From positions 81,920 to 145,919 of the IMG/VR virus record IMGVR_UViG_3300032309_001546: a DNA stretch of 64,000 nt, one strand, 5' to 3'. The stretch's first letter is position 1. Every line of letters begins with the position of its first letter. The position numbers were made by a program, and so were the translations under genes. The stretch comes from a virus. A model generated the notes under the pieces. It had not been told where the DNA came from and did not search any database. It saw only the letters and a list, made by a program, of their open reading frames with translations. Below, piece by piece: positions 5,955-26,870 of this stretch.

Positions 5955-6159
5955 TAGTAAGTCTCCTAAGTAGATTAGATCATTGTTTAGCCAAGAGATA
6001 AAAAAGAGCACTGTAAGAGGCCGGCGCAGCCGGCCCATAAATAAAGTACATTGAAGACTATATACTAGTAAAGAGAGATAGACAGAGTAATAGGATATAC
6101 AGAAGAGATTAAGGTCTAGACAGTAAGGAGTATACATGTAGCATGACAAGTCATGTCCT

Positions 6160-6510
6160 GCTATACCCTGCGTTATACCTTGCTATACCCTGCAAATACC
6201 CTGCAGATCCCCTTAAAATACCTTGCTATACCTACCCCGCTCCTACAAACTATACCAATATACCTTGTCCTCGCGTAAGCCCGTCTTATACCTCTATATA
6301 CCCCTATATGCCAAAAGCATACAAGGCTATTCTCTGGACTCTTTTTGAACAAGTTCTTATACCCCTATATAGTAAACTTATATACTTGTATGTATACTTG
6401 TATACCCCTATGGGGCAAAAGCTGCCTTCATGAAACTCTGGATATCCATCGTAAAACTCTGGACTCTTTTTGGATCTTAAAAATGACTCTTATCTCTGGA
6501 CTCTTTATGG
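6160..6510. repeat. low-complexity tract: ~12 ATACC/TATACY repeats and 4 CTCTGGA(CTCTTT) repeats
   Basis: Seen directly; strand-skewed and non-coding. Confidence 0.75.
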
Positions 6511-6569
6511 TCTCAGAATCCTGGCCCGGTTGCTTGCATGTATAGCCCTTTATAGCTATATCCTCCTTG

Positions 6570-6599
6570 AAAAGAAAAACCCTGCTGTTAGGCAGGGTT
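6570..6599 (-). terminator. intrinsic terminator
   Basis: AACCCTGC-CTAACA-GCAGGGTT followed by TTTCTTTT on the minus strand. Confidence 0.8.
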
Positions 6600-6612
6600 C
6601 TCTTCCTTGAGA

Positions 6613-7002
6613 TTAGATCTCTTGGGCATGAGAGTGACGAGTCTCTCGATTAGGACTGTTAGCAGCACGGCGGCGCTTGATAGCCTCCAACTTTGCAGCT
6701 AGTTCATTTTCCTCACGTTCAGCATTCAAAGCATCCAACTTACGCTGGTACTCACGCTGAGCACGGGTCGTCTTTACTTCCTCAACAGGCTTACTAGTAG
6801 ATTGAGATGCTGCGGGTCTAATACCCTCAACCTTCTCAGTTACCATATTACTACCCTTCTTGAGGATAGGACCAAACAACCCCATGAAGATAGCAGGGAT
6901 TACTAGAAGAACAGTACCGAAGATACCCCAAAGGGCACCTGCTGCACCTGCTGCTCCTGCTTTGGCAAGAAATGTTCCGCCTTCTGCGCCTACATCAGCC
7001 AT
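6613..7002 (-). CDS. membrane-anchored coiled-coil protein
   Basis: Hydrophobic N-terminal segment then a charged helix; GGAGG RBS. Confidence 0.7.
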   Translation of the reverse strand: MADVGAEGGTFLAKAGAAGAAGALWGIFGTVLLVIPAIFMGLFGPILKKGSNMVTEKVEGIRPAASQSTSKPVEEVKTTRAQREYQRKLDALNAEREENELAAKLEAIKRRRAANSPNRETRHSHAQEI

Positions 7003-7004
7003 GA

Positions 7005-7319
7005 TTAGCCCTCCACTCGATAGAATGCACCTGCATTAGGTGCGTGAATCTGAATAGCGCGATAACCTGGATGAAGCGGCTTACCCGTTGCATCCTTCTT
7101 GTGTCGCTTTAGAAATAGAGGAAGGTTCTTGAAGCCCAAGGTGAATCCCTCGGCACCAATCTCCCCATTGCTCCATACCTCGATATCATCACCACCCATC
7201 TTGCAACGAGTAACGACGAAGCTACCAGCCTCTGTACGAACTCGTGCTACAGTAGGAACTGCAGGGTTAGATGAACCAACTCGAATCACACCACTCGCGG
7301 TCAAAACATCACTCATCAT
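7005..7319 (-). CDS. hypothetical protein
   Basis: Start moved to ATG 7319 (GAGG RBS); the longer track ORF runs through the tRNA. Confidence 0.65.
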   Translation of the reverse strand: MMSDVLTASGVIRVGSSNPAVPTVARVRTEAGSFVVTRCKMGGDDIEVWSNGEIGAEGFTLGFKNLPLFLKRHKKDATGKPLHPGYRAIQIHAPNAGAFYRVEG

Positions 7320-7364
7320 ATACCTCTCATGTTGTACTCTAGAATATAGAGCGTTTGGGGAAAG

Positions 7365-7439
7365 TGTGCCCGACTGGACTTGAACCAGTGACCTACGGCT
7401 TAGAAGGCCGTTGCAACTATCCAACTGTGCTACGGGCAC
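7365..7439 (-). tRNA. tRNA-Arg (anticodon UCU), no encoded CCA
   Basis: GTGCCCG/CGGGCAC acceptor, D arm, ACGGC-CTTCTAA-GCCGT anticodon arm, ACTGG-TTCAAGT-CCAGT T arm. Confidence 0.93.
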
Positions 7440-7467
7440 GCAGCCTAGGTTTTACCCTAGTAGTTGT

Positions 7468-7962
7468 TTAGAAGCCGTCTCCATCCTCGAAGACAAAGTT
7501 GTCAGCAGGATTTCCGGCAGTCTGACGACGACGCACAGTAGTACGAGCCACAGCACGGACTGCAGGAGTTGCCACAGGACCAGCCGCCTTCATCTGCTGA
7601 GGAGCTGGAGTAGAAGCAGGTGCTGCTTCCTTGGTTGGCCGGCGACCATAGTTGATCTCATTCGCGACAACTTCAGTGATGTAGCGGGTCTCACCCTTGC
7701 TCTCATACTGACGAGTCTTGATTCGACCCTCGATCTCGGCCTCACTACCCTTTGACAGGTACTTGGCAGCATTCTCTGCAGCCTTACCCCACACAACAAC
7801 ACGATGCCACTCCGGCTCACTGACCGTCTCTCCCGCCTTATTTACGTACTCGTAATTAGTGCAGATAGACAAAGTAGCCCGGCTACGGCCAGTTTCAGTC
7901 GTAGACAACTTGGGATCATCACCAAGGAAACCACGAAGCTCAACACGATTCTTATTACGCAT
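7468..7962 (-). CDS. ssb: single-stranded DNA-binding protein
   Basis: NRVELRGFLGDDP...EWHRVVVWGKAAENAAKYLSKGS..EIEGRIKTRQY; acidic-aromatic tail (EDGDGF). Confidence 0.95.
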   Translation of the reverse strand: MRNKNRVELRGFLGDDPKLSTTETGRSRATLSICTNYEYVNKAGETVSEPEWHRVVVWGKAAENAAKYLSKGSEAEIEGRIKTRQYESKGETRYITEVVANEINYGRRPTKEAAPASTPAPQQMKAAGPVATPAVRAVARTTVRRRQTAGNPADNFVFEDGDGF

Positions 7963-8049
7963 CTCTCATCTCAACTTACCCATCCACTGATGGTAATGTT
8001 TATTTCAATAAAGCATAATACTCACGATAAAAAGCGAGCGCAGCGAAGC

Positions 8050-10149
8050 TAATGTATGCCAAGTACAAAGATCTGAAACATTGTACTAACAATGCTCAAA
8101 AATGTAATGGCAAAGTATAAAACGAAGATCCCACTGATAATGTCCCACAGTGTAGATTTCTTCATGCTAGGAAAAACACTATCTCTGAAAGCACATTTGT
8201 GAAGAGTACCTTCAGTATCCAAGCTATTCCAATCAACGTAATGATTCTTTGCATTATTACCTCGTAGCTAGAGCCAAGATAGCAATAGCAGGCCAGATCA
8301 GACTAGCCGCAGTATAAGCAAACACAAACCAGACAGGAACCACAACGCTTGCAGTTCCATTGATGTGGCTCATAGTGAAGGATACAGTACTCATAAGAAT
8401 TGACTTCATTAGATCCCCTTTCTGGTTTCGGCGTCTCCGATGTTGACGAACTTTGCTCCCTTGAATTTGCGGTACGAGGCGATGAGAAGGCCTGGGACTC
8501 TCTGTACCCAGATGCCACCTTGTGCTTTGATTCGCTTTGCGATCCGCCTTGCAGCGTATCGATTAGGCGTTTCATGCACGGAAAGACATCCACTAGCAAC
8601 AAGTACACTGTACATTAGATCTCCTGGTTGCGGATGATTTCAATTTCTTGACTGATCCGGATATCCCGGACAGCAAGCATCAAAGTACTGATACGGTCAA
8701 CTCCCCAGACTGCTTCCAGCATTGCAATCAAGTATGCAATGTTCTCTGCATTTCGGTAGTTGATGTCAAAAAGACGGTTATCGACTTTATCCATAGGATC
8801 TACGTTTTCCATGTTCTTCTCCTACTTGATGTCTTCAGCGCGGGCGATTGCCTCTGCTGCGAGAATGATGCATTCAAGGTTCTCGAAGTTCTTTTCAAGA
8901 TACTCGATGCGGTTACGGGCCTTACGAGATCCTTCCTTGATTGCGAAGTCTTCATTCCACAGAGGAGCGGTGTCCTGAAGTAGATTGAATGCACAACGGT
9001 ACTCTTGGAGCTGGGCCTTTCGACTTTCACGGGTATTAGCCGTAAGGTTGATGTAAGTCAGGTGATGAAAAGTATCGGTAATCAGACTCTTTGTCTCGTA
9101 CATTTATTCCTCCGAGGAATTGTTGTTGAACTTGAACTTGCGGCATCCATTCTTAGATTCCTCCTTCCGGGGGTCTCCATGGTTGCCGTTCTTGAAACCA
9201 CCGTAAGCAAGCGTCATTGCGGCGCTATCACGACGAGGGACAAACTTATCTTTCTTTACAGTCTTTGACATTGTAACCTACAGGTATAAGTAGCTAGAAT
9301 CAAAGAACATCACTGCTGCGATGATCCAGAAAGCAACGCCGCCATAAAAACTGGCGACGAGAAGGGTTGTTTCAGCAAGGTTGAAGGTGTGCTCTTCAAA
9401 CCGCTCCTTGTCAATGTTGAATGTAATCTTCATGACCAGTAACTCCAGCGAAGGATGTCAATGAGGACCATGAATGCGCAAGCAGCGAATCCAAGTCCAC
9501 TAAGACAGAAAAAGAACAACGTGCAGAATTGCCAATTGTTCACAGTAACAGCATACTTACCAACTTGAATCTTGTGCATTCTTATTCTCCTTCAGGAAAC
9601 AAACGAAAGAACTTATCCTCTGCCCAGTCTTCAAATGAGAAGTCCAGTTCTCGGTCAAGACCAAGTTCCGCAGCTTCAATCAACAAGTTATCCTCATTCT
9701 TGTCAAACCACTCTTCAAAGTCAATCATGGTGTCCTCCTTAGGACATAAGGGTTTAGAATTGTTCGAATGCCTTCTCAGCGTGAGCAAGCGCAAGGACAA
9801 GGCTATCTCTGTAGCCCTCAAGCTCTGGATGGGTTGGTAGTACACCATTTGCCCGCGTAACCAAACTCTTGAGAGTAGATACCATGCCTTTCAGCGCATC
9901 GTAATCTATTCCACTATGACCAGCATACATCTTCATCATGACTTACTCCTCCAAACCAGAGTGATTGAGGAAGTCCCCGATAACGGCATGGATAGCGCTG
10001 ACCTTGTCACCAGCATATCCGTTCCAGTCATGGACTTCCATGCTATTGTCAGCGCGGACATCAAGGCCAAGGATCATGACATCTCCCTGGTAGATCTTGA
10101 TAAACGCAGATCCAGTCTCTATGTTCTTCAAAAAGTCTACAGTCAGCAT
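8050..10149 (-). CDS. cluster of ~12 short hypothetical genes (incl. 8409-8615, 8615-8812, 8822-9103, 9582-9728, 9754-9939, 9943-10149), several membrane peptides
   Basis: Abutting minus-strand ORFs with GGAG/GAGG RBSs; plus-strand track ORFs here are shadows. Confidence 0.6.
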
Positions 10150-10179
10150 GTTGTCCTCCAAGGACATAAGGGGGAAAGT

Positions 10180-10246
10180 CTTCCTGATAGGATTCGAACC
10201 TATCTGCTAGACCCGCAGAAGGCGGGTTTGCAATACCATAAGGAAG
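10180..10246 (-). ncRNA. tRNA-like mini-element 1
   Basis: CTTCCT/AGGAAG acceptor, TATGGTA D-like loop, long stem, GATAGG-TTCGAAT-CCTATC T arm. Confidence 0.6.
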
Positions 10247-10333
10247 TGATTCAGCCTTTGTGGCTACTGGACATGACACCCAATAGGTTATCCTACCAAC
10301 GGGCAGGTTACAGGCTGTTGACCTATTGGACTA

Positions 10334-10897
10334 CTAGTTCTCTGGGAAGATGTTTCCCAGCAGAAACTCTTGACATTCCAGTCGGGAGCTGGGCTCGTAG
10401 TAAGGAGCGAGTTCAGGATCACGGGCGTTGACCTTGGCTCTCTTGGCCTTGATCTGTTCCCTGAAATCCTGAAGTTCCTTGCTGCCCTTCTCCATGCGCA
10501 TGATAGAGTCTGTCTCGTTAGTGAGGACTTCTCCCCACAACTTCAGACCCTTCTTCAACGTCTCAAGGAACACGGGAGTCATGGATACCAGGTGAGCAAT
10601 CTGGTAGAAGCAATTCTCGTGGACACTGTTCTCCAAAGAGATGCCGACATCTCTCCAGCCAGTGCCATGGTCCCAGTACAGACCCTGGAACTCCAAGTCA
10701 ACTACCTGGATGGTGTTCGGAAAACTGACCTTGAAGGTCGTATCTTCCCACCTCTTGCTCCAGGGGTCCTGTTCCTTAGCGGAGTAGAAGTTCTTCGTGC
10801 TCTTCTGGACAACCTCGATGTTCCAATCATGCTCTTCACAGATACTCTCCAGAGTCTTCTGGATGATAAAGTCAAGGACAATGTCTTTCATGTTCAT
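10334..10897 (-). CDS. hypothetical protein
   Basis: ~185-aa ORF, start approximate. Confidence 0.7.
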   Translation of the reverse strand: MNMKDIVLDFIIQKTLESICEEHDWNIEVVQKSTKNFYSAKEQDPWSKRWEDTTFKVSFPNTIQVVDLEFQGLYWDHGTGWRDVGISLENSVHENCFYQIAHLVSMTPVFLETLKKGLKLWGEVLTNETDSIMRMEKGSKELQDFREQIKAKRAKVNARDPELAPYYEPSSRLECQEFLLGNIFPEN

Positions 10898-11023
10898 TCT
10901 CCAGTAAAGAGGTAACATTACCTCTGAGGTTATAAAAAGTGCTCCAGTTTACAGACATGGAGCAAGGTCACGGGACACCATTATTTGTGCTCCCCTATAC
11001 TAGGCTGTTTCTCACCTAGTAAT

Positions 11024-11094
11024 TCAATCATATGGGAATCGAACCCATAACTAGATATCCATAATGGTATATCTAGCGTCACCAGACTAATCAA
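11024..11094 (-). ncRNA. tRNA-like mini-element 2
   Basis: TATGGG-TTCGATT-CCCATA T arm, CTAGATAT/ATATCTAG long stem, TCTGGTGA D-like loop, G-U-rich acceptor. Confidence 0.5.
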
Positions 11095-11140
11095 AAGGGT
11101 ACGGGTCGTCTTATTTGCTAGCGTGCGAACCCCTTCCCAG

Positions 11141-11350
11141 TCGTTACTAGCGAACTAGTAACCACCCCATGTCTATATAACTACTAGGGCAGGGGTCCCT
11201 AATAATTAGCCCATGTTTACTCTCATTACTCGCGGCAGGGCTCCGCCAGTAATAAACCCTATGTTTATCTCGTTACTAGAAGCAAGGGACTAACTAGTAA
11301 CCACCCCGTGTTCATCTTGTCCATTAGTGGCTGAGGCCCACTAACAGCCA
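11141..11350 (-). repeat. five degenerate hairpin units joined by RTRRACAYRGG linkers
   Basis: GTTACTAG/CTAGTAAC stem occurs twice; linkers TAAACATGGG, TAAACATAGG, TAGACATGGG, TGAACACGGG. Confidence 0.65.
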
Positions 11351-11551
11351 GCCTATCTTTATAGCCAGGTTTGCAACCCTGACACCCCTAGGTTTCCATG
11401 AACGGTAGGCGCGTTCATGTGTTTCTAGAAGGATTAGAAGGTGACGTCTTGCAGTACGAACAATAGGGTTTACATCCCCTACTATTCGCAATGTAACCTG
11501 CGTGACGCCGTAAACTTGTGAGCATTTTATAGACCTACTCAGGTCTGAGGA

Positions 11552-11758
11552 TTACACGAAGAAGCGACGAGCCACGTGAACGGCCTCAATGAGAGACTCA
11601 GAACCAGTGCTGGCATCTTCCTCGTATTCCTCGAAATCGACAAACTCTTCAGGACTGTCCGGGCGATGGCTCCAGTCGATGCGGTCAATGACCTCATCTT
11701 CGCTACCGACAGGAATGTTGAAGCAATCCTCAAAAGACACGAACTCAACAGGGACCAT
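11552..11758 (-). CDS. small acidic protein
   Basis: 68 aa, GGAG RBS, very D/E-rich. Confidence 0.65.
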   Translation of the reverse strand: MVPVEFVSFEDCFNIPVGSEDEVIDRIDWSHRPDSPEEFVDFEEYEEDASTGSESLIEAVHVARRFFV

Positions 11759-11844
11759 GACAGACTCCGTTTGTTACGAAGACACACATAATGTCTTCAC
11801 CATGAAAGGCGAGCGCAGCGAGCCTAATACTGTGTAGCGGAGTA

Positions 11845-11881
11845 AAAATAAAACCCCAACACATCCTACTGTGCTGGGGTT
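11845..11881 (-). terminator. intrinsic terminator closing the ~400-nt non-coding unit
   Basis: AACCCCAGCACA...TGTGTTGGGGTT followed by TTATTTTT. Confidence 0.75.
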
Positions 11882-12272
11882 CTATCTCTCTATCTCGCAT
11901 TAGGACACTAGCAGGGTCACTACTAGTTACGAGTCTATCAGCCCAAGAGGAGGCTTATCCAAATCGTAATGCGGAATTGGCAACCGCACCTGTCTACTTA
12001 CACTAGAACCCGACAGGCCCTTTCTAGTGCTTTGATACCCGACAACTACTGGTGTGGTATCTACTGGAGTCTTGAGCCCAGTCTACTCTCCTCCTGGGTA
12101 CGCCTAACTAGGCTCACCATGCTCCCCCGAGGTTGGGAACATGGGTACGGGGCGCGTAACTGCCCCTTCCCAGTTTTTATGTTAAGCGGACTGGGAACCG
12201 CCCCTGTCTGATACATACCAGAAGCCGACAGGCCTCATCTGGTACGAGTAGCGGTAGCTACTATCCGCCATG
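11882..12272 (-). ncRNA. candidate structured ncRNA with two related H-type pseudoknots
   Basis: No minus-strand ORF; consecutive hairpins; repeated loop GGCCTGTCGG with downstream AGACAGG. Confidence 0.55.
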
Positions 12273-12401
12273 TGAGGCGAGCGCAGCGAGCCTAATAGAA
12301 TCCTATTACCTGGACTCTGTCTGGCCATACTAGTAATGCAACTATTTTTGGCCGACCCTAGTAAAGGGGTTTCCCCCCGAGTAGGGGGGTTTCGTGGGGG
12401 T

Positions 12402-12445
12402 AAAAAAGTTCCCCTCCCACACTGTAAGTGTGAGAGGGGGGTTCT
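12402..12445 (-). terminator. intrinsic terminator of the SSB-like gene
   Basis: CCCCTCTCACAC-TTACA-GTGTGGGAGGGG then AACTTTTTT. Confidence 0.75.
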
Positions 12446-12925
12446 CTAGTCCCAGTCGCCAGCAACAGGGGCGGACTTGCGGGCGGCAGGCTTGGCGGCG
12501 GGCTTGGCAGGCCTCGCGGGAGCCTTGGCAGCGGGCTTGGCGGGTGCCTTGGCGGGCTCCTCGACAACACCGTGACGACGCATAAGCGCCTTCTCGGTGG
12601 CCAAGAGACGAATCTGGGCCTTGCTGTACACGATGAGCCTGGTGGCGTTGTGCCAGGCCTTGTCATCGCTCTGCCAGGACTCCGTCTCGAGGCCTGCCCC
12701 GTCGATGTGCACGAAATTGTACCCGCTCTCGTCCGCCTTTGCGACGAACCAGTTCACGAGCTCCTGGCCGACCAGACGCACCCGCGTCCAGTTGGTGTCC
12801 TCCGTCCCGTAGGACGAACTGACCGAGAAGTCCGCGTACTTTCCGCTGGCCCCGATCACGGGCTGCTTGCCCATGTAGCCGAAGCCCGAGACCTTGAGGG
12901 TGAGAAACTTGCGATTCTGTTCCAT
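12446..12925 (-). CDS. divergent SSB-like OB-fold protein
   Basis: TNWTRVRLVG and LETESWQ match the SSB pattern; AKPA linker; acidic-aromatic tail GDWD; GGAG RBS. Confidence 0.65.
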   Translation of the reverse strand: MEQNRKFLTLKVSGFGYMGKQPVIGASGKYADFSVSSSYGTEDTNWTRVRLVGQELVNWFVAKADESGYNFVHIDGAGLETESWQSDDKAWHNATRLIVYSKAQIRLLATEKALMRRHGVVEEPAKAPAKPAAKAPARPAKPAAKPAARKSAPVAGDWD

Positions 12926-12969
12926 TGACGTTCTCCGTGGTAAGTGAGCCAAAGGCGGCTCATCATGAA

Positions 12970-13140
12970 AGGCGAGCGCAGCGATGCCTGTGCTGCGGCG
13001 TTGTTGCTGTTGCCTGCGTAGCGCAGCGGAGCAGGCTGTGTTGCTACCTGCGGAGCGCAGCGAAGCAGGGTAACCACGTAGCGCAGCGGAGTGGTGTGTC
13101 CTGTGGTTCTGATGAGCGTAGCGCAGCGGAGTGAATCAGA
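12970..13140 (+). repeat. cluster of five GC-GCA-GC triloop hairpins with GA/GNA internal mismatches
   Basis: 12970-12989, 13013-13035, 13047-13069, 13073-13095, 13108-13140; single copies at 6019, 8033, 11807, 12275. Confidence 0.85.
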
Positions 13141-13211
13141 GGCGAGGACTCGGCGCAGCCCAGCGGAGTATCTGGACTTTTTTACGACTATTTGTACTAT
13201 TTTTGTATTAT

Positions 13212-13238
13212 AGAAAGAATAGCCCATTGCTGGGCTAC
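13212..13238 (-). terminator. intrinsic terminator of the giant ORF
   Basis: TAGCCCA-GCAA-TGGGCTA then TTCTTTC. Confidence 0.8.
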
Positions 13239-13250
13239 TCAATCTAATGG

Positions 13251-16200
13251 CTACTTCTTACCCGTGATACGGTTAAGACGTGCCGCGACACCGGCCTTCT
13301 TCTCCGAGGGAGCAGGGGCGGGCTTCTCTTCAGCCTCAACCTCGGCGTCGAAGTCATTGGGATCGATGAAGATAATCTTCAGGCCCGACTCTTCAGCGTA
13401 ATCAACCGCATTCTTTGTACCGCCAGTGCTGCCATCCCAGACAGCAATGACGATATCGGCGCAGTCAATCATCTGCATGTTACGGCGCTGCATGCAGAAC
13501 TTGTCTTCGCCATAGGTCTTCTCGCTGACCTGGACGACTTCGCTGGCAACTTCCAGCATGTTCCAGTAGCGCTGCTTGGCTTCGCGGGGCCACATAGCCT
13601 CCTGCTCTACACAGGGGATCATGACCGTGAACGGGATACCCATCTCGTGCGCAATCTCTGCCGCATCCTGGTCAACGCCAAGGGCACCGCCAGTGATTAG
13701 CCAGAGCTTCTCACCGTGCTTGGCAAGACCACGCTCAAGCTGAGCCGCAATCTGTTCACGTACCCAGATGCGCTTCTCCGCATTGGGATTGTATCCGCCG
13801 ATCTTGTCGGGACGGTGACCAGTGAAGGCCACAAAGAAGTACTCCGTCTCTTCGGCTTCAACTTCCTCAGTTGCAGCCGCGATCTTAACCTTGAAGGGAT
13901 CGACATACAGCATACCGGGCTTGTAGTCTGCATACCCTTCGGGGCGGTTGTTGTGGGTAGACTTCGCGCCCGCAGGAGGATTCGGCAGAGTGCTGACATC
14001 CCGCTTCTGGATGTAAAGCATTACTCCATCAAGTCGGGCTTCGTCATACCAGGCTTGAGGGCCCTTCTGGCGGATCTGCCACTCGCTAAGGTCAACGCTA
14101 TCAGCATCAAACTCGATGTAGGGGCCATGGTCCCCGTACACAATGCGTGCGTACTCGGTTGCAATAATGCTTCCATTCGGGGTTTGGATTTCCCCATCAA
14201 AGCCCTGACCATCCTCACGGAGTCCGAGTTTGGCTTCGACTTCACGCTTGTCGGCTTCGCGATTAGGCAAACCAAGCGTTGTGGACTTGAAGTCTTCGGA
14301 CTCTTCGTCTTCGGCAACAGGGCACACAGCGGCCATCGAGGGGCCATTGTCTTCGTATCTGGCTTCGCAGGTCGGGCAGAGACCGGCCACGAAATCCCCC
14401 TCGACTTTGCAGTCCTCACAGGCATTTGTGCAAATGCGGCAGCCAGCGCCCTCGCACACTTCGCACACAGATGTGGGGATGGACTCTTCTGCTTCTTCCT
14501 CAGTCTTGTTGGCAAGGCGCAGCAGGACGTCAGCGTGGCAGGCTTCGGGTGCACAATGGCAAATCAACGACTTGCCAGTAAGTTCTCCGAGGCTATCCAT
14601 GAGATTAACCTGTGCCTTCACCCAAGCCTCGTACTTGGCAATGACTTCCTCACGGTTGCCATCGCGGCCAAGGACGAAGGGATTACCCCACTTGCTGGGA
14701 CGGCCAACGTATACCGCACCGGAAGGAATATCCTTATCTGCCCGGTTGTAGACGGCAGGTGCAGCGTTAGCAACGACCGGAGCGCTAGCCTCAGTGGCTT
14801 CAGACTCTTCGTCTTCGCTGTCCACCCAGCAATCGGTGTAATCGAAGCGGTCGCTGCTCTTGGCCTTCTCGTCTTCCTCAAAGACCTCGGACTCTTCCTC
14901 TTCGTCACCGTACTGGCTAGGGTCGAAGTCCGGGTTCTCTTCACCGAAGTCCGGCTCTTCTGCATCTTCCGGCTCGGGCATCTCGTCAGCGTCCTCCGAG
15001 ATGTCATACTCGTGCGAGGGCTCATCCTCGTAACCCTCCTCGTACGTATCCTCTTCAGGCTCATCACCAGAGAAGACATCGTTGAGATCCTCTTCGCCTC
15101 CACCCTGAGGACCGTTGTCGTCGCCAAGGAAGGTGAGGATCAGGAAGCTGTTCAAGCCCTGAGGCGCGAACCTGGTGCCAACAGCCACGGTGCGACCCAT
15201 GACAGTTTTACCATTCTCGTCCTTGGTCTTGATGTCGGGGTTCCACTCGGTAACCCACTCACGCTCCACAAGCTCTGCCTTCACCGCAGTACCCGGGAAG
15301 ATCTCGATCAAGCGACGCAGGAAACCGAATGAGTCAGCAGCTTCAAGCGTGCTCATAGCGTTGAAGCTGTCGAGCTCAGCCTGCGCTTCTGCGATCTTTG
15401 TCTCGCTGGGCTTCTTGGCCTTCTTCAAGTCAGCCAGTGCGTGACGAAGCTCCTCACCCTTGTTCTTCCGACGAAGCTCGATCTGACGACCGATTTCGCT
15501 GACAGTCGCAAGCTGACCCTCAAAGCCATTGGCCTCTCGACCATCGCTGATGCGCACGCCGGGCAGGCTGAGAAGACCATCGATCCCCCAGCCAAGCTTC
15601 TCGCCGTCACCGCCGAAGCCACCGCAGTTCTTCTCACCACGGATGTAGGCGAGGAGAGCTTCTGCGTCCTGGCGTACCGTCGGGGTACCACCCTTGCCCA
15701 AGTAGAGAGCAAGCTGACGGGCTTCACCGAGGCTGTTATCGTCGAGGCCGTTGATTGCGGCAATGCCATTGCTGGACATCCAGTCCGTGAGGTATTCCCA
15801 GGGACCGCCGACGAAGAACGCAGTGGTAGCGATACCGCCATTCGCCTTAAGGTTGCCATTGGCATCCTCGGTGATGGTGATCTCAAGAGCCTGTGGCTTC
15901 GCATCCTTGCCGACCTTCTTGGCCTTCTCAGCAGGCTGCAGGTAACGATTGGCAAAGGCAAGCCAGGCCATCTTCACAGCAGCGTCGCGGTCTTCAGCCT
16001 CAAAGTTCTTGAGGATGTACGACTCGATCTGGGAGTCTACGAGTTCAATCGCCGCTCTGATGGGCATCGCCGAGTAGGCCAGCCAGAGTGCCTTCTTGGC
16101 ACGCGAGATGTTGCCGCCAGCCAGCATTGCACTGACGACCCTGTAACGACGGTTGCTCTCGTGGCCTGCAGGAGCCATGATCTTGTGGATCAGTTCCTGG

Positions 16201-19200
16201 TTGGTCCAAGCCTGGAGGTTCTTGAAGCTACCGGGGCTCCAGTTCCAGTAGAGCCAGGCCTCGGTCTCTTCGCCAGGGGCCTCGTCTTCCGTGCGACCAA
16301 GCCAAGCAGTGAGCGTCTGGTGCAGGACGTTCTGGCGACCAGCTTCCCACTGAGCATTGGCGAGGGATTCGACCTCATCGATGCACCACTGGCGGTAGTC
16401 AGCCCAGAGGGTGTAGACCTTCGAGCTAAGCTCACCAGCGACGAGGTGGGTAACGATCTCGCCTTCTTCGTTGCGGACGGGAGCGGTCACCTTCGTGCCA
16501 TTCTCGAACAGGGGCTGCATGTCTTCACCGAGGACAGCAACACGCTTGGCCGGGTCGACGAACAAGCTCTTCGCACCAAGGCTGAGCTTCCGCAGAACGG
16601 CAGGCACGAATGCCCAACCTTCACGGCCCTTGCCTTCGGTGACAAGGTCAAGCCAGACCTGGTAGACCTGCACCATCCGGTAGGATGCCCAGGCTTCAGC
16701 GTAACCCGTCATCTTGACCGCTGCGTCAACGATGTCGGACAACGTCACGCCGAAGAGGAGCGTCTCGGAGATCTCCTCACGAAGCTCCTCGAGGAAGGTA
16801 GGCAGCTTCACCCAGCCAACAGCCAGGGACATGCCGTAGATCTTCGCGTTAGCGACGATACCAATCGCCTTCTGGAAGACGTTCTCCTCCATGTTCATCA
16901 CCGACTCGTACAAGCTCTCGTGGCTCATACCAGCAGTGGTGGCTTCGACCGGCGCTTCGGGCTCCGTAACGGCGGTAATGACGAAGTTCTCCGTCTTCAC
17001 CTTGAAAGCCTGACCGAGGATCGTGGCCGCGTTGAGGCGGGTCCACAGGCTCTTGTTCTCCGGGATACCGGCGACCATCTTAGCACGGAGCGCGTTCTTC
17101 TGTGCACGCTTCTCGGCGTTGAGCTTCGCCTTATCAGCAAGAGCGGTACGCCAGGCCAGACCCTTCACGATGAGCATGGCAAGCTTACCACGCGCAGTGG
17201 GGCAGCGGTCATCATAGTCCATGCCTTCGTTTGCCTGGAGCAGGAGGACTACCGTGTCTCCGCTCGCCGTGGTGAACATGATCACCATACGGCCGCTTAC
17301 GCCGATGATGAAGATATTCAGGCTTTCCGGCAGCTCACGGATCTCCGCAACCGTGCCCGACGTTTCGCCGGTGGGGTTACGGAAGAAGATTGCCAGGTTG
17401 GGCGCGCAGTTGTTCTTCGCCCAGCGAGCAAAGTTGGTGCAGTAGACAATAAGACGACCATCAGCCGTCTTCGTCTCCAGCTCCATGGTCTGCTTCGCCT
17501 TCGTAGCAACCTCCTCAGAGTGCTGCCCTTCAGCAATCCAAGCCGCATGCAGCATCGGCCAGAGGACCGGGATGGGGTAGGTTGCCCACAAGTCGCTTCC
17601 CTCCTCGGTAACAGGAGCGATCTTCATCGAGCCAGGCTCAATGTTCTTGCTCAAGGTGCCAACCAGCTGCTGTGCCAGCATGCGGAAGGGGAGAACAGGG
17701 ATTCGCATCGCGCCGAGGAGCTTCGCAAGAACGCTGTTGCGGTTGTCCTCGACCTTGGCCTCTTCGTCGCCAGCAACGAAGTCGTCAGCATCCTCGTCCA
17801 GACCCTTCAGGAAGTCGGGGAGACGCTTCTTGGCGTAGGCGATGTAGCCAGCAATGAGCTGGTAGAACTCCTTCGAGTTGACCTCAGCTCCGAGAAGCAT
17901 AAGGATCGACTGAAGCGACATAACCGCCTTCTCCTTCGTGAGCGCCGCAGTGCCGGGGATCCAGCAAAGGGCATAGTCGTTCTGGGTAGCGGACCACTCG
18001 GTCTTCACCTCACTGGCAATGATGCAGACGCCTTCAGGGAAGTACCGAGCCGGAAGCGGGATGCACATACCCTTGATCAGACCTTCGCTGGTCAAGATAC
18101 GAGCCACCATCGGAGCGGTCAGACCCATGGCCTTCGCCACGTCGGCACGGACAAGCACAAGGCCGTCGAAGAACTTGACCAGTGCAGCGGCAATCTTGCC
18201 CAGGTCCAGGACCTTACCCGGCAGGACAACGCGGGCAGTAACCCGCGAGATCCAGTACGAGTCAGCATACTTAGCAATGCGGCCCAGGGTCTTACCCTTG
18301 AACCGCAGAGCCGCCATGCTGACCTTCTTGGCTTCGGGCGTGCAGTAGAGGGTCATACCCTTCTGCAGAACCCGAATGGTGACAAGGCCAAGCTTCTTAG
18401 CGTTGGCCACGGCATCGGTATCGTCGTCAGCGACAACGAGACCTTCGAGGAGTCCAGGGCTATCGTCAGCCGCAGGACTAGTAGCACACGCCTCCTCAAG
18501 GAAGGCTGCGAACGTGCCGGGAGTGCATACCCGGACTTTCTTGTTACCCATCTTGTTCTCCTTAGGGGTGGGTGCCCCGGTGTGCTTCGTCGAGGCCAGG
18601 ATGATTCCCGGCTTAACGGAAGCTTTGGTGTCGTTGTTGGTGCTGGTGGCTTCACCGTTTAGGTCATTGTTGACCTCGGCAAAGATATCCTCGCAAGCCG
18701 CCATAAGACGAGCTGCGATGGCTGAGATGGCGTCGCTGGGGATGCCGGCATAGAGGCGGTCATAGCCACCTCTCATGGTCAACTCGGTACCGTCCGCCTG
18801 GCAGACATTGCAGAATTGGCCCTTTGAGCCAAATCCTGCAACACCGCAACCGACGCAGGTCTCGGGCCCGCAGTCGGCTTCGCTGGGCTTAGCCTTAACC
18901 ATGGCCTCGAGCTTCGTCGCAAGGGCATTGCCCACTACAACGAACAGGATACCGACGATGCCGACGACAAACAGAAAGCCGGGTCCTGCAAGGAACTCGG
19001 CCGGGCTCTTAGCCCAAGCGGCTTCGACCGCCTGGCTGAACGTGGGTGCTGCAGCGGCGAGTACGGCGATAAGCGGGGAGCTGGCCTTCACCGCATTGCG
19101 GCGTTGGCGGCTCAGTTCCCGCTTTCTGGTGCGCTTCTGGGCATCCTCAGTCGCCGTCATGGCGAAGAAGACGCTTGCGGTATCCTGTGCGGACTTGCCC

Positions 19201-20048
19201 GTGTTACCACAGACAGCGGCTTCGATGCGCTTGGCAAGGGTGGTCTTGATGACCACAATCTTAGCGCCGATAGCTACGGGCTTCACAGGAGTAACCTGCT
19301 TGGCCTTTGCCGCCGCGATGTGCGCCGAGAAGGTCATGGCCTTCGTGACGCGGGGGAATTTCGCGACGGGCTTCGCAGCAGCCTTAGCGACGGGCTTCGC
19401 AACGGGCTTGGAGGCAGCCTTGGGAGCAGGCTTTACAGCGGGCTCAGCGACGGCTTCCACTGCCACTTCCGTGACAGCAGCAACCTCGATGGCAGGGGCA
19501 GGGGCAGGCTTCACAGGAGCCTTAGCGACAGGCTTGGCAATTGCCTTCGGAGCGGGCTTGGCGACAGCCTTGGGGATATGGACCCCCTTCGACCGCAGCC
19601 AGCGGTCAAGGCGGATAGTGGTCCAGCAGTTACGCCGGGCCAAACGGGCTGCATGGCGGGTAAGCGCCTGCAGCCTGAGCGACGCCGCCGACTGGGCAGC
19701 AACAGTCCGCCGAAGCGGAAGGACGATGGCGTATACGTTCGCCAGAAAACGGGCCACGAAGGCCAAGATGACACGGACCATGGGATGGTCCTTACCCTCC
19801 GCGAGGAGGATTGGGGTGGTCGGCTTCACCGAATTGGCAAAGCGGACCACGAGGGAAGCGGGGATGCGGGGAGCGATGCGGGTTGCAGCCTCCGTGACCA
19901 GCACGAAGCTGGTGACGAAGAAGCTGACTAGGGCAGCGGCCTGCTGCGAAAGGGTGGGGGCCAGCTGGGCCTCCACGGTCAGCGCCGTTGCGAAAACGGC
20001 GAACACCACAGCCACGATGGCGGTGATGGCGAGTTGGATCCGAGACAT
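13251..20048 (-). CDS. 2265-aa multidomain protein: membrane N-terminus, putative two-barrel (YonO/QDE-1-like) RNA polymerase core, acidic linker, DUF4326, Zn ribbons, unknown YADYK domain, YspA/SLOG (DUF1273)
   Basis: Ordered motifs FDG..., R...G.IKG, FFRNP, GMDYDD, IGIVAN, IVDAAVKMTG; YVGRPSKWGNPF...CHCAPEACHADVL; FTGHRP...GGALGVD...RN..MID...AVWDGS.GGT; AGGAGG RBS. Confidence 0.75.
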   Translation of the reverse strand: MSRIQLAITAIVAVVFAVFATALTVEAQLAPTLSQQAAALVSFFVTSFVLVTEAATRIAPRIPASLVVRFANSVKPTTPILLAEGKDHPMVRVILAFVARFLANVYAIVLPLRRTVAAQSAASLRLQALTRHAARLARRNCWTTIRLDRWLRSKGVHIPKAVAKPAPKAIAKPVAKAPVKPAPAPAIEVAAVTEVAVEAVAEPAVKPAPKAASKPVAKPVAKAAAKPVAKFPRVTKAMTFSAHIAAAKAKQVTPVKPVAIGAKIVVIKTTLAKRIEAAVCGNTGKSAQDTASVFFAMTATEDAQKRTRKRELSRQRRNAVKASSPLIAVLAAAAPTFSQAVEAAWAKSPAEFLAGPGFLFVVGIVGILFVVVGNALATKLEAMVKAKPSEADCGPETCVGCGVAGFGSKGQFCNVCQADGTELTMRGGYDRLYAGIPSDAISAIAARLMAACEDIFAEVNNDLNGEATSTNNDTKASVKPGIILASTKHTGAPTPKENKMGNKKVRVCTPGTFAAFLEEACATSPAADDSPGLLEGLVVADDDTDAVANAKKLGLVTIRVLQKGMTLYCTPEAKKVSMAALRFKGKTLGRIAKYADSYWISRVTARVVLPGKVLDLGKIAAALVKFFDGLVLVRADVAKAMGLTAPMVARILTSEGLIKGMCIPLPARYFPEGVCIIASEVKTEWSATQNDYALCWIPGTAALTKEKAVMSLQSILMLLGAEVNSKEFYQLIAGYIAYAKKRLPDFLKGLDEDADDFVAGDEEAKVEDNRNSVLAKLLGAMRIPVLPFRMLAQQLVGTLSKNIEPGSMKIAPVTEEGSDLWATYPIPVLWPMLHAAWIAEGQHSEEVATKAKQTMELETKTADGRLIVYCTNFARWAKNNCAPNLAIFFRNPTGETSGTVAEIRELPESLNIFIIGVSGRMVIMFTTASGDTVVLLLQANEGMDYDDRCPTARGKLAMLIVKGLAWRTALADKAKLNAEKRAQKNALRAKMVAGIPENKSLWTRLNAATILGQAFKVKTENFVITAVTEPEAPVEATTAGMSHESLYESVMNMEENVFQKAIGIVANAKIYGMSLAVGWVKLPTFLEELREEISETLLFGVTLSDIVDAAVKMTGYAEAWASYRMVQVYQVWLDLVTEGKGREGWAFVPAVLRKLSLGAKSLFVDPAKRVAVLGEDMQPLFENGTKVTAPVRNEEGEIVTHLVAGELSSKVYTLWADYRQWCIDEVESLANAQWEAGRQNVLHQTLTAWLGRTEDEAPGEETEAWLYWNWSPGSFKNLQAWTNQELIHKIMAPAGHESNRRYRVVSAMLAGGNISRAKKALWLAYSAMPIRAAIELVDSQIESYILKNFEAEDRDAAVKMAWLAFANRYLQPAEKAKKVGKDAKPQALEITITEDANGNLKANGGIATTAFFVGGPWEYLTDWMSSNGIAAINGLDDNSLGEARQLALYLGKGGTPTVRQDAEALLAYIRGEKNCGGFGGDGEKLGWGIDGLLSLPGVRISDGREANGFEGQLATVSEIGRQIELRRKNKGEELRHALADLKKAKKPSETKIAEAQAELDSFNAMSTLEAADSFGFLRRLIEIFPGTAVKAELVEREWVTEWNPDIKTKDENGKTVMGRTVAVGTRFAPQGLNSFLILTFLGDDNGPQGGGEEDLNDVFSGDEPEEDTYEEGYEDEPSHEYDISEDADEMPEPEDAEEPDFGEENPDFDPSQYGDEEEESEVFEEDEKAKSSDRFDYTDCWVDSEDEESEATEASAPVVANAAPAVYNRADKDIPSGAVYVGRPSKWGNPFVLGRDGNREEVIAKYEAWVKAQVNLMDSLGELTGKSLICHCAPEACHADVLLRLANKTEEEAEESIPTSVCEVCEGAGCRICTNACEDCKVEGDFVAGLCPTCEARYEDNGPSMAAVCPVAEDEESEDFKSTTLGLPNREADKREVEAKLGLREDGQGFDGEIQTPNGSIIATEYARIVYGDHGPYIEFDADSVDLSEWQIRQKGPQAWYDEARLDGVMLYIQKRDVSTLPNPPAGAKSTHNNRPEGYADYKPGMLYVDPFKVKIAAATEEVEAEETEYFFVAFTGHRPDKIGGYNPNAEKRIWVREQIAAQLERGLAKHGEKLWLITGGALGVDQDAAEIAHEMGIPFTVMIPCVEQEAMWPREAKQRYWNMLEVASEVVQVSEKTYGEDKFCMQRRNMQMIDCADIVIAVWDGSTGGTKNAVDYAEESGLKIIFIDPNDFDAEVEAEEKPAPAPSEKKAGVAARLNRITGKK

Positions 20049-20292
20049 GAGTTACCTCCTAGTCAACGGGGTCCAGCGCGATCTATAGGGAAGCATTCCC
20101 TATGACCGACATACCAGTGTCTTGTAACACACTGGAAGATTTCTGGTCCTTTATGGGAAGGACCCTGTTTAAAACCCTGGCTTTCTGTTCGCTCCGGCAT
20201 TGACCCATACTACCTTCTTGGAAGATACTGGGGTGCCATTCGAACTATCCGGCCCATTGCGACCACCCCTTAGCAGAGAGCTGGTCCACATT

Positions 20293-20323
20293 TTAGCCCA
20301 TAGTAGTGCAACTATTTAAGTAT
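20293..20323 (-). promoter_or_regulatory. class-A repeated motif (TACTTAAATAGT-N0-11-ATGRGYTAA) upstream of the polymerase gene
   Basis: Same motif precedes every unit from 20.3 to 27.1 kb. Confidence 0.7.
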
Positions 20324-20339
20324 CGTACAAAAAATACCC

Positions 20340-21893
20340 TTCCTGGGAAGTTCATTAAAACACTTACACACCCAGTGTGCAGTTTGCTCAACGCATAAAT
20401 TACTAGTCTGATACTTGTTAACAGACCAGCGATCTATACGCCGTGAACCCATCCAGGGACGCCAGGAGCCTTGCCTCCGTCCTGGGATTAGCTTCGCACA
20501 TTAGCATGACATAAAGCGTTTTATCCCTTAAAGGATTCTTGCGCTGCAGTCTTCTTCTCCCACTACATTACTAGACTAGAGGTTCAATGGGCCTCTATGC
20601 TAGGGATCTTGCCGCCGAATTGCGCGAGAAGATATAACCATCCTACTCCTTTTGAGAGCAAGAGCATCTAGTAATTACCTGACCTATGTGTAGTTATCTA
20701 TGGGCAAACAGATCCTAACAAGAACTGAACCTCTGGCAGCGGTTTCTTGTTAGTTTAGGCGTACAAGCGCCTATCCCCTCTTATACGTGCATGCCTGGCA
20801 GTCATCACATACTAATTGGGGGCTGATCTTTTGCTTGCATAGTGATTTGGGTTCTTCTTACCAGTAAGAGCGGCGCTACTCGCTAAAACCAGTATATAGG
20901 GTGTTTATAACCCAATCCAAATGCAAACGGCTCCTCGGTATTTCAACCGAATCACAGCCTTCTACAAGTGTCAAGTGTGGGAGTCAAAGACACAGCATCC
21001 TTCTTGGGACGCTTTGTGTCATACTTCTGTTACGAAGCTAAAGCAACGAATCTCACCATCTCACAGACCAGGTCCTGTCTACACAGTAATCAACTGTATA
21101 GCGGTTATCTGATCTGTCCTCGTTGATTCCTCGTTATCTCTGCAGAAGGGCTACCGCTTAAAGTAGAAATCCTCCTGGATAACTTGGTCCACCGGCCACA
21201 CCTGCTAGAGTGCGCCTACTCTGTCTCACGACAGTTGGGGAATTATGCAGCATTTACTCTGTAAAAACAGGGAAAGGGTTCAGCACTTGCCGCCTTGCTT
21301 AAGGGCGGGAGTTTGCCTATCACGAGATCTGCTTGTGTCGGTTTTGCGGGGTGTTTTTGTTGAGGTTCCCCTTTTGCCTCCTTTTTTAAAGTCCGTACTC
21401 TCTTTCGAGGACAACAGACTTAGTGCGCGTAATCAACGCTTGGGAAAGTTAAAACCCATATAGTCATCTTTGGTGAGGGATGACGCCCTACTGCCGACAG
21501 GCAGACCCCTAAAATCTCTATTAGCCATACTTGACATCCACACCACCGACATATTAGGAGCTTTCGCCCCCGGAAGAACTGTTCCTCCTTGGTGTTTCAG
21601 TCTGTGTTGCAGGCCGTACGAGATCTTAGGTTGACAGTTTTTCTGCTACCGACTTTTAGGGATTGCTCCCTCCGCCGGATTTATGCAGGAACACAGTTTT
21701 GGCTGTTAGCCTAGCTGCTTATACTGTCCTCGTGTCCTCTCCGACCATCCACCTTTGGGCATGGCCAGATACTGCACAAGTCAACGAACCGGTAAGATTC
21801 GTTGCTTATTTTTTATGGGGCGTTAACTACGTGCAAAACCTTGCCAACGCTGATCCCCACATATGGTCACTCCATATGTTTAAGACTCCACTG
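20340..21893 (-). ncRNA. candidate giant (~1.55 kb) structured ncRNA
   Basis: No minus-strand ORF of 60 aa or more; two class-A motifs upstream; dense hairpins with GNRA loops on the minus strand. Confidence 0.6.
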
Positions 21894-22080
21894 TTTAGCC
21901 CATAGTATTCTTTTGACGACTATTTTTGGACTATTTGAGTAAAGTAAAACAATTTAACCCATAACTATACAACTCTTTGAGTATTAGAGAAAAAATAGCC
22001 CTTAACGCGGGCTAGACGTGCTTTTCTGTTCCCAAGAAGCAACTCTCGGATGGGCACCACCCCATCAGGCACCTCCCGTT

Positions 22081-22368
22081 TCAGGGAGACGGGCACTCCC
22101 CATCTTTGAGGTGACGCTTGCTGCGCACACAGCCGTATTCGGCCATGCGAGCCTCCACCTTGCGAAGGTGAAGAGTGTCACCCCAAACCGAGATGTAGGG
22201 TTTATTAGCCAAAGCTCCGAGAAGCCGGCCAATTCCCCACATCACGTCGGAAGCCTCGTCCTTGAGTTCTTCAAGGTTTTTAACCTCGAAAAGCTCTACT
22301 GCCTCTTCGGCAATATGGACGATAGCAACCCGGATGGGAAGCACCTCAAGACATTTACAGAAATGCAT
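22081..22368 (-). CDS. possible MazG-like all-alpha NTP pyrophosphohydrolase
   Basis: EEAVEL...EELKDEASDV resembles EExxE...ExxD; AGGAG RBS. Confidence 0.5.
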   Translation of the reverse strand: MHFCKCLEVLPIRVAIVHIAEEAVELFEVKNLEELKDEASDVMWGIGRLLGALANKPYISVWGDTLHLRKVEARMAEYGCVRSKRHLKDGECPSP

Positions 22369-22526
22369 CTGTAGACTCCTTGTGGTAATGCTGTATGCAG
22401 TACAGCGCTGTGAGTAAAAGGATCTTTACTTCACTGTTTAGCCCAGACTAGTGTACTATTTAAGTATGTTTCAAAGAATGACCCATCTTGCGATGGGTCA
22501 CTCAGTGATGTCTCTCTTCCCTTTCT

Positions 22527-22889
22527 CTACTTCCGCCAGGCCCCAGTACGAGCCTCGACCACAGTCTTGAGGTTGCAGTAGAGGTTGCCCACCGCATAGC
22601 GGCAGGGGGTAGCGGTGGTCAGCCAGTCCTCGTTGGACTGAAGGTCGGGACCCTTGGCCATGGCCAGAGAGTAGCGAGCTTCCTCTGACAACTGGCATTT
22701 GGCCAGAGTCTTGCGGTGCACCGAGACCTTGACGGTGTCGATCTCGCCGCTGAAAGAAGCCGCCACGTGGTTCCAGCCGATGGCCTTGAGGGCCTCGACG
22801 ATCTCCGTCTTGTAGACCGAGACGGGAAGGGTGGGGGGGAAGGAGATAAGGAGCGCGCTATCCGTCACATCATTGATCTTCTTGCACAT
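22527..22889 (-). CDS. cassette hypothetical protein
   Basis: GGAGG RBS before ATG 22889. Confidence 0.75.
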   Translation of the reverse strand: MCKKINDVTDSALLISFPPTLPVSVYKTEIVEALKAIGWNHVAASFSGEIDTVKVSVHRKTLAKCQLSEEARYSLAMAKGPDLQSNEDWLTTATPCRYAVGNLYCNLKTVVEARTGAWRK

Positions 22890-23034
22890 GGTTTCCTCCA
22901 TTGGAAAGGCGGTGTGGCGCACCGTGGCAGGGGGTAGAATCTGCCATCTTCTAGTTCATAGTAGGACTATTTAAGTACTATAGATTACTTACCCCACCTT
23001 GCAGTGGGGCTTTCATCTACCTCAACCTCAGCTC

Positions 23035-23181
23035 TTAGTCCTGCATGCAGCTCCACGAGATGCCGATCCAGGACAGGATCAGAAGACCCGCGCAGACCGG
23101 CTCCATCACGCCAGAGCCAAAGCTCCAGCCGAGGGTGCAGGTTGCGAGGAGGAAGCTGGCGGTAGCGATTGCATTCTTCAT
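23035..23181 (-). CDS. cassette small two-TM peptide
   Basis: 48 aa, hydrophobic, GGAG RBS, fills a cassette slot. Confidence 0.65.
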   Translation of the reverse strand: MKNAIATASFLLATCTLGWSFGSGVMEPVCAGLLILSWIGISWSCMQD

Positions 23182-23325
23182 GACATTCTCCAGTTTGGCA
23201 TCATTCTTTACGAAGTGTAAAGCTATGTATGCCCACAGCCTAGCCCATACTACTATTTGTGTATCCTAGAAAAGATAGCCCACCTCCTCAGGGTGAGCCA
23301 TCCTATCTATCCTCAATCGCTCTAG

Positions 23326-23505
23326 TTACTCGCTGCGGTCAGCAAGCCAACCACCACGACGCACCGACTGGCGGCACGCGAGGCAGTCACAGCCCCAAAG
23401 GGCGTCGGCGATGTCGCTTTCCCAGGCAAACTCCTCTTCCTCCGTGAGGAGGACGATGAGCTCGATCTGAAACAGGGCGAGGATCTTGACAAGAATCTTG
23501 TCCAT
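23326..23505 (-). CDS. cassette small protein (CxCxxC)
   Basis: AAGGAG RBS before ATG 23505. Confidence 0.7.
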   Translation of the reverse strand: MDKILVKILALFQIELIVLLTEEEEFAWESDIADALWGCDCLACRQSVRRGGWLADRSE

Positions 23506-23630
23506 GGCTAACTCCTTTACGAGTGGGGACGACATTATCCCAAAGCTGGCCAAAGATTAACTCATAGCAGTACAACTATTTATGTATTGTCGATTACTTA
23601 CCCCTTACGGGGCTTTCGTCGGGTTGCTCT

Positions 23631-23891: not shown

Positions 23892-24015
23892 GAGATCTCC
23901 TTTCGGTTTGGGTGACATTACCCATCTCACCGTTTAGCCCATAGGACTGTTTAAGTATTGTTCAAAGAATAGCCCGCCTAAGCGAGCCACTCGATGATGC
24001 AGTCTACCTCATCCT

Positions 24016-26751: not shown

Positions 26752-26870
26752 GGCAAACCTCCTGGTTGAAATCGTTCCTATGAATTATAGGTAACGTGCC
26801 ACAAGTTAAGTCATACTATTTGTGTATGTAAGAAAGAATGACCCACCTTGCGATGGGTCACTCAATCAGG

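Follow-up and report, generated by a model that had tools for sequence, protein, structure and literature searches.

Template-strand DNA mini-hairpins ahead of genes in a lake phage as candidate promoter elements for a two-barrel RNA polymerase

To our knowledge, hairpin promoters are known from phage N4 and its T7-like virion RNA polymerase (RNAP) and from no other system, and we know of no explanation for the preference for single-stranded DNA (ssDNA) that single-chain two-barrel polymerases (crAss-like gp66, QDE-1, YonO relatives) display in vitro. Here we describe small, very stable and strand-specific DNA hairpins that lie ahead of genes in an uncultured lake phage, together with a gene predicted to encode a polymerase of the two-barrel class. 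The window analysed is a stretch of 64,000 nt, bases 81920-145919 of the 145,919-bp virus record IMGVR_UViG_3300032309_001546, which is about 84% complete. Coordinates are those of the window unless they are marked as genome coordinates, and relatives and contigs are denoted by L or G numbers.

At the early promoters of N4, a GC-rich heptamer centred at -11 lies between inverted repeats on the template strand, and the hairpins are extruded by gyrase and supercoiling and stabilised by EcoSSB (PMC4496689). GCGNAGC mini-hairpins are also present at the G4 and ssiA priming sites (PMC13037366). For the crAss phage phi14:2, gp66 transcribes single-stranded or denatured DNA only, and its early transcripts share no common promoter motif; the same study notes highly expressed intergenic RNAs in phi14:2 and the requirement of QDE-1 for RPA and a helicase (bioRxiv 10.1101/2020.03.07.982082). 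Phage P23-45, with two-barrel RNAPs, has two promoter classes, AT-rich and GC-rich, both of them in linear duplex DNA (PMC10770324).

The hairpins described here share several features with the N4 promoters P1-P3 (gp50, Schitoviridae). They contain a GCGNAGC-type heptamer with flanking inverted repeats on the template strand, the 3-nt loop is closed by a sheared G·A pair, and the opposite strand forms a weak hairpin arm. A start would be expected a few nucleotides past the stem, and a conserved A 4-5 nt beyond it is compatible with the fixed start distance of N4 (loop centre at -11). Dependence on a single-stranded DNA-binding protein (SSB) belongs to the N4 model, and two SSB genes are found here. 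In contrast to N4, the polymerase is of the two-barrel rather than the T7-like type, the loop centre is C or T instead of the purine required in N4, and the stems carry tandem G·A or GNA/GNA internal loops. Seven dispersed copies and an array, known here from sequence alone, stand against three copies at the genome end of N4. We give about an even chance to the idea that these hairpins are core promoter elements for the two-barrel polymerase of the phage, working with the phage SSBs. It fits the strand and slot of the hairpins, their spacing, the conservation of their structure rather than their sequence, and a polymerase of an ssDNA-preferring class encoded beside SSB genes.

The hairpins listed in a preliminary description of this DNA were all found in place. 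GCGCAGC occurs 18 times in the window, compared with 7.06 ± 2.5 in shuffled sequences (0/100 reach 18), and the triple motif GNAGCGNAGCGNAG occurs four times, with 0.03 expected. A genome-wide scan bore out the strand bias that had been proposed, with GCGCAGC 17 times on the + strand and 6 times on the - strand. All copies with flanking stems (12/12) are on the + strand and within the leftward gene block of the 146-kb genome, for whose genes the + strand is the template. The hairpins take three forms. Type A is GGCCGGC-GCA-GCCGGCC, located at window 6019 and, beyond the window, at genome 55414 and genome 79171. Type B is (A)GGC-GA-GC-GCA-GC-GA-GCC(T), located at 8033, 11807, 12275 and 12970. 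Array units have the form stem-GNA-GC-GNA-GC-GNA-stem and form a cluster between the polymerase gene and the gene of the second SSB (SSB2), which counts five units (13012-13172) when a degenerate one is included. The array spacers are CA-rich on the gene strand. The array is kept in L001 and L002 with covarying stems, and the corresponding place in L165 holds a similar array rich in GGA.

We aligned array units of this phage and of two relatives (polymerases 90% and 81% identical), 13 in all. Each of the three GNA triplets keeps its G and A and varies at N, and both inner G-C pairs are likewise invariant. In the outer stems, 90.6% of the cells pair, compared with 21-60% in slid controls, and five of the six stem pairs show changes on both sides, a result matched by 0/500 shuffles. 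The covariation of the outer stems around the fixed G and A, suggested earlier from a few copies, thus holds. Four distinct array units contain a G·T wobble on the + strand, one of them with an added GA/GA step; on the other strand, such wobbles and G·A pairs turn into A·C and pyrimidine mismatches. G·A mismatches and G·T wobbles are located on the template strand in G000, L175, L176 and L177. Standard nearest-neighbour models predict the expected fold on either strand with small differences, and folding energies alone cannot decide the strand because the parameter sets miss the stability of GNA loops and G·A pairs. As gene-strand RNA, type B reaches -5.4 kcal/mol (z ~0), no better than shuffled sequence. 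On the basis of the invariant GNA triplets, the covarying stems, the wobbles and mismatches restricted to the + strand and the weak type B RNA fold, the selected structure is on the + strand, the template for the local genes. The loop is GCA in this phage, GTA in L002 and GAA in L175-L177.

The palindromic character of the hairpins and the conserved boxes that co-occur with them (ACTCCGCTG and AGAGTCCAG) would also suit operators, that is, duplex or cruciform sites for a phage regulator which overlap a promoter of another kind. We regard such a role as very improbable: the stems covary with no fixed recognition sequence, and the strand-asymmetric G·A and G·T features would be meaningless in duplex DNA.

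The seven single hairpins are located about 40-70 nt ahead of a gene or a noncoding RNA (ncRNA), mostly right after a canonical terminator. Their positions agree with the preliminary description, in which single copies precede minus-strand units and lie on the template strand. They serve SSB2, a ncRNA of about 400 nt, a 68-aa gene together with a long ncRNA and other genes, the first SSB (SSB1), and a PcfJ-like gene (Table 1). In the direction of transcription, the spacer consists of the terminator, the hairpin, 4-5 nt, an A, a small 5' stem-loop, the ribosome-binding site and the gene. At the type B hairpins, a pyrimidine spacer leads to the A, which is 4 nt past the stem at 11807, 12275 and 12970 and 5 nt past it at 8033, and the post-stem box reads TTTCATG or similar. 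The CATG noticed earlier beside three hairpins is present at 11807, 12275 and 12970. The 11807 hairpin, approximately 25 nt past its canonical terminator, is kept in L002 and L003, and the 12970 hairpin in L001, L002 and L003. The slot of the 6019 hairpin, between an iteron-like region and the PcfJ-like gene, is also occupied by a hairpin in L165 and L175.

Table 1. Hairpins, terminators and genes of the hairpin region (window coordinates)
Feature	Position	Strand	Remarks
Type A hairpin GGCCGGC-GCA-GCCGGCC	6019..6035	+	62 nt ahead of PcfJ-like gene start (5957), past iteron-like region
SSB1, canonical SSB	7468..7962	-	PF00436, E 1.8e-27
Type B hairpin AGC-GA-GC-GCA-GC-GAA-GCT	8033..8050	+	71 nt ahead of ssb start (7962); A at 8028
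Type B hairpin AGGC-GA-GC-GCA-GC-GA-GCCT	11807..11825	+	49 nt ahead of 68-aa gene (start 11758); A at 11803
Type B hairpin AGGC-GA-GC-GCA-GC-GA-GCCT	12275..12293	+	immediately ahead of ~400-nt ncRNA; A at 12271; RNA contig of depth 117 over 11929-12167
Canonical terminator after SSB2	12411..12439	-	upstream of 12275 hairpin
SSB2, divergent SSB	12446..12925	-	OB fold, AKP-rich tail, GDWD tip
Type B hairpin, GAT on 3' side	12970..12989	+	45 nt ahead of SSB2 start (12925); A at 12966
Four-hairpin array	13012..13139	+	units 13012-13036, 13047-13069, 13073-13095, 13109-13139
Degenerate array unit	13145..13172	+	gene strand is ACTCCGCTGGGCT; overlaps class-A-like promoter element heading array
Canonical intrinsic terminator of polymerase gene	13217..13240	-	upstream of array
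2265-aa protein, predicted two-barrel RNA polymerase	13251..20048	-	core residues ~575-1260; C-terminal DUF4326 and YpsA/SLOG domains

Another reading is that the hairpins are extra terminators or insulators for leftward transcripts, perhaps specific to the phage polymerase and placed behind the ordinary terminators. Type A would fit such a function, with a 7-bp G+C stem, an RNA energy of -15.8 kcal/mol and TTTCTTATT or TTGTTTTGT following, and its copies at genome 79171 and 55414 are within 10-25 nt of a stop codon. However, the RNA folds of type B and array units are weak, with TTT at most (≤3 U) or CA-rich sequence after them, and most hairpins are directly behind a canonical terminator already. 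Downstream of the hairpins, the conserved A/AT..TG box and the 5' stem-loop suit a start, not a stop. We consider termination quite unlikely as the general role.

A scan for sigma-70 promoters gave matches no commoner than in shuffled sequence, none of them adjoining any hairpin. We notice a different promoter-like, conserved motif, referred to as class A: TACTTAAATAGT, 0-11 nt, ATGGGCTAA, about 4 nt, and GTGG. It is located behind every terminator in a set of about 14 single-gene cassettes (window 20200-27700), is also present at 13175-13215 and ahead of the polymerase gene, and is kept in L165, a relative at 27% identity. In these neighbouring cassettes (20.2-27.7 kb), the slot of the hairpin is held by the class A motif instead. 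Two promoter classes in one phage recall the vRNAP and nvRNAP promoters of P23-45; those, however, are linear duplex motifs for which no hairpin is reported, and one two-barrel RNAP is found in the present record.

The class A motif bears on the possibility that the hairpins function at the RNA level. Transcription would then start further upstream, for instance at TAAATAGT or ACTCCGCT boxes, and the hairpins would lie within leader RNA, possibly as processing sites, protein-binding sites or stability elements, with autoregulation of the SSB genes as one option. A class-A-like element does lie ahead of the array and of the 12275 hairpin, the outer stems pair in RNA as well, and the L176 array has CA-rich (ARN-like) spacers and perfect-stem hairpins with purine loops on the gene strand. 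We nevertheless consider this reading unlikely. The gene strand gives U·C/C·U mismatches and UNC loops, the G·T wobbles of the template strand become A·C mismatches in RNA, and type B, as described above, folds no better than its shuffled versions. The gap between terminator and hairpin is about 25 nt at 11807 and 3-10 nt in some L176 spacers.

We further compared the loci around seven polymerase homologues. All seven share the order of polymerase, noncoding sequence with ACTCCGCTG boxes, SSB, small genes and ncRNAs, second SSB, iteron-like region and PcfJ-like gene. Equivalent hairpins occupy the same slots, and 37/37 have the same orientation relative to the genes. Most of them have GNA loops or G·A mismatches on the template strand. 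Their sequences are locus-specific, with stems that are wholly different between relatives yet still complementary. The template-strand hairpins are GGCC-GA-C-GAA-G-GA-GGCC and GCCC-GA-C-AAC-G-GA-GGGC in L175, GTCCGCC-GAA-GGCGGAC in L176, and GCACGCC-GAA-GGCGGGC, with an A·G mismatch, in L177; L165 has GCGCGGG-CTTGT-CCCGCGC. Past each hairpin of the relatives comes a conserved box, AT..TG or GTGG. Some of their intergenic spaces are about 100 nt long and are filled by a terminator, a hairpin and a 40-nt leader (L176 15013-15122 and 17161-17261), leaving no space in which another promoter would fit.

The G4 origin and RSF1010 ssiA/ssiB also use stable mini-hairpins on SSB-coated strands as initiation signals for an RNA-synthesising enzyme. 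Those signals are read by a primase at replication origins, whereas the hairpins here track gene starts on an inferred leading-strand template. The preliminary description had left open promoters or priming signals. Priming of the ssi type (G4/RSF1010), by a DnaG-like primase-helicase on SSB-coated DNA, or a role as part of an origin, would be in line with the mini-hairpins that mark the G4 and ssiA primase sites (PMC13037366), with the DnaG-DnaB fusion and the two SSBs encoded by the phage, and with the array as a unique cluster. We find it very doubtful. Judged by the GC-skew minimum at about 110 kb, the hairpin strand would be the template of leading-strand synthesis over the whole block, although skew also follows gene direction, and in every relative the hairpins track gene starts with a fixed spacing to an initiator-like box. 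Of the two proposals, the promoter one fits the slot and the priming one is the weaker.

The predicted polymerase is encoded by a giant open reading frame, of which sequence searches gave no hint: the core had no match in Pfam, PHROGs or PDB sequence searches and none among INPHARED proteins, and a peptide-pattern search of IMG/VR was also empty. An AlphaFold model of residues 575-1260 has a predicted local distance difference test (pLDDT) score of 86. With this model, the top Foldseek matches, at probability 1.00, are QDE-1 (E 3e-6), 6vr4, P23-45 gp96 and P74 gp62, and the structural matches include the crAss phi14:2 virion RNAP and the P23-45, P74 and P32 phage RNAPs. Two double-psi beta-barrels, a metal-binding Asp loop and the KG lysine motif are all present, and the G.D.DD, KG and RxP motifs are invariant in a profile of 20 detectable polymerase relatives. 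Judged by its modelled fold alone, the protein is a single-chain two-barrel RNAP of the QDE-1/crAss type. It shares the core fold of phi14:2 gp66 and QDE-1, enzymes that prefer ssDNA templates. The active-site loop is G-x-D-x-D-D here, in contrast to DxDxD in those enzymes, and the gene also differs in its location in the early/replication arm and in its DUF4326 and SLOG domains. No second two-barrel RNAP copy is present in the record. In the relatives, PIF1 helicase or HIRAN domains are fused to the polymerase, SSB genes always come after it, and the YpsA/DUF4326 part is a separate gene.

Regarding the SSBs, the 12446-12925 gene had been described as ssb-like, and we indeed found an SSB OB fold in it. 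The positional equivalents of SSB2 in L176 and L177 match the Pfam SSB family above the cut-off. Two further candidates for the hairpins were rejected. REP/RAYT or IS200/IS605 hairpins are ruled out by the lack of a Y1 (HUH) transposase (PF01797: no match, with a control search positive in 6 genomes), and a small + strand open reading frame through the hairpin is not conserved.

We propose that a second class of promoter, specific to the phage, would have these hairpins as its core element. The hairpin would extrude from the duplex on the template strand, where the GNA triloop and the sheared G·A pairs would stabilise the arm, while the complementary pyrimidine arm would be weak and could be held open by SSB. 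The extruded hairpin may position the two-barrel polymerase so that transcription starts at the A of TTTC-A-TG, 4-5 nt beyond the stem, and a protective stem-loop would form the 5' end of the RNA. Ahead of SSB2, the array would bring several such structures together, either as a region for extrusion or loading or to provide additional binding sites. We infer the start at these points, the reading of the hairpin by the polymerase and the extrusion in vivo from the features described above. The earlier proposal of N4-like hairpin promoters therefore stands in part. The strand-specific template hairpins, the promoter slot, the 37/37 orientation in relatives and the two SSB genes agree with it; the N4/T7-type polymerase and the purine loop centre do not. 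PF00940, the N4/T7-type RNAP family, had no match in the 146-kb record, a search in which the control genomes, too, naturally lack the family. By this comparison, the mechanism may be called N4-like, but the element is not a member of the N4 family.

Several observations weigh against this promoter reading. The hairpin copies within one genome are near-identical and so are not independent. The strand asymmetry is not universal, because the loop of the single L165 hairpins is CTTGT, the template strand there lacking a GNA, and the purine loops of the L176 array are on the gene strand. Since a class-A-like promoter heads the array, transcription probably runs through the array itself and makes it part of a leader RNA, and the polymerase gene is itself under a class A motif. 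The type A copies at genome 55414 and 79171, close behind a stop codon and with T-rich tracts after them, are terminator-like, and these two of the three type A (perfect-stem) copies could be ordinary terminators instead. A sigma factor and a primase-helicase of the DnaG type are encoded by the phage as well, and either may be involved instead. Finally, the RNA contigs of metatranscriptome run X1 come from relatives alone and show no readable transcription start.

These RNA data are assembled contigs in which the array and most hairpins are uncovered. Over ssb, one RNA contig stops at 8013, still 15 nt short of the start proposed there; this is no more than a weak hint. The noncoding stretches 10974-11607 and 11929-12167 are the deepest-covered in the freshwater metatranscriptome (contig depths of about 501 and 117, compared with 4-20 for neighbouring genes) and appear to be abundant phage ncRNAs. 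Homologues are found in L165, L175 and L176. We also notice tRNA-like pieces (GGTTCGAATCC and GGGTTCGATTCCC, T-arm-like boxes) within noncoding window 10168-10333 and 10990-11070, which are kept in L175 and L176 and are uncalled by ARAGORN and Rfam. An Rfam search of the window gave one tRNA and nothing else, and an INPHARED DNA search of the region gave no match but a tRNA.

Other observations concern the polymerase and the hairpins. Residues 1-560 of the polymerase (window ~18370-20048) contain hydrophobic helices, AKP-rich repeats and Cys clusters, with no family match. The HIRAN/PIF1-fused homologues are at L175 10001-18316, L176 4244-10159 and L177 6445-11976, and in L172 and L165; one 161-kb phage has two polymerase paralogues in tandem, of 1146 and 1252 aa. 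Scanning IMG/VR for GGCGAGCG-N-AGCGAGCC gave matches in more than 110 viral contigs, mostly unrelated and often just downstream of same-strand genes. We take this to be a generic stable hairpin with other uses, and these matches are therefore no evidence for the present system. It is present, mostly with a GAA loop and mostly intergenic, in many low-GC viral contigs (L007, L017, L066, L081 and others), and some giant-virus metagenome-assembled genomes have several copies. A scan of IMG/VR for the type A 17-mer matched mainly high-GC contigs, by chance.

The phage is myovirus-like, with genes for a portal, a sheath and a head protein, and also encodes the DnaG-DnaB primase-helicase fusion, the sigma factor, Pol III alpha and RecA. 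A scaffold of 165,957 bp carries the same phage. In genome coordinates, a leftward gene block (24.7-109.6 kb) is flanked by rightward ones at 0.2-24 kb and 110-145 kb. The G+C content of the record is 41%; it is 50-58% over the polymerase, cassette and hairpin module (genome 90-110 kb, window ~8-28 kb) and 33-41% in most of the remaining genome. Window 27655-28119 contains AT-rich GGAAAAG..TATATA repeats where the leftward and rightward gene blocks diverge. Because this divergence point coincides with the cumulative GC-skew minimum (~110 kb, genome), the stretch is a candidate replication origin. Window 6036-6570, between a terminator and the 6019 hairpin, is gene-free with repeated boxes (AAAGAGTCCAGAG and TATACCCTGC-like) and is a candidate origin or regulatory region; regions built like it precede the PcfJ-like gene in L165 and L175.

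A literature search found no paper on hairpin promoters of two-barrel RNAPs. Tentatively, and with somewhat less than an even chance of being right, we suggest that a family of uncultured freshwater myophages has a self-contained system in which a QDE-1-like two-barrel RNAP with dedicated SSBs (and, in relatives, fused PIF1 or HIRAN domains) initiates at extruded template-strand mini-hairpins. If true, these would be the first promoters defined for the two-barrel polymerase class, the N4 strategy would have been reinvented independently, and the array would act as a single-strand entry region. If the hairpins are start signals, they would provide a defined, testable promoter for single-chain two-barrel polymerases and a compact orthogonal promoter/polymerase pair for engineering. 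They would also explain why SSBs and helicase domains travel with the polymerase, and the d(GC-GNA-GC) mini-hairpin would be used convergently by unrelated polymerases.

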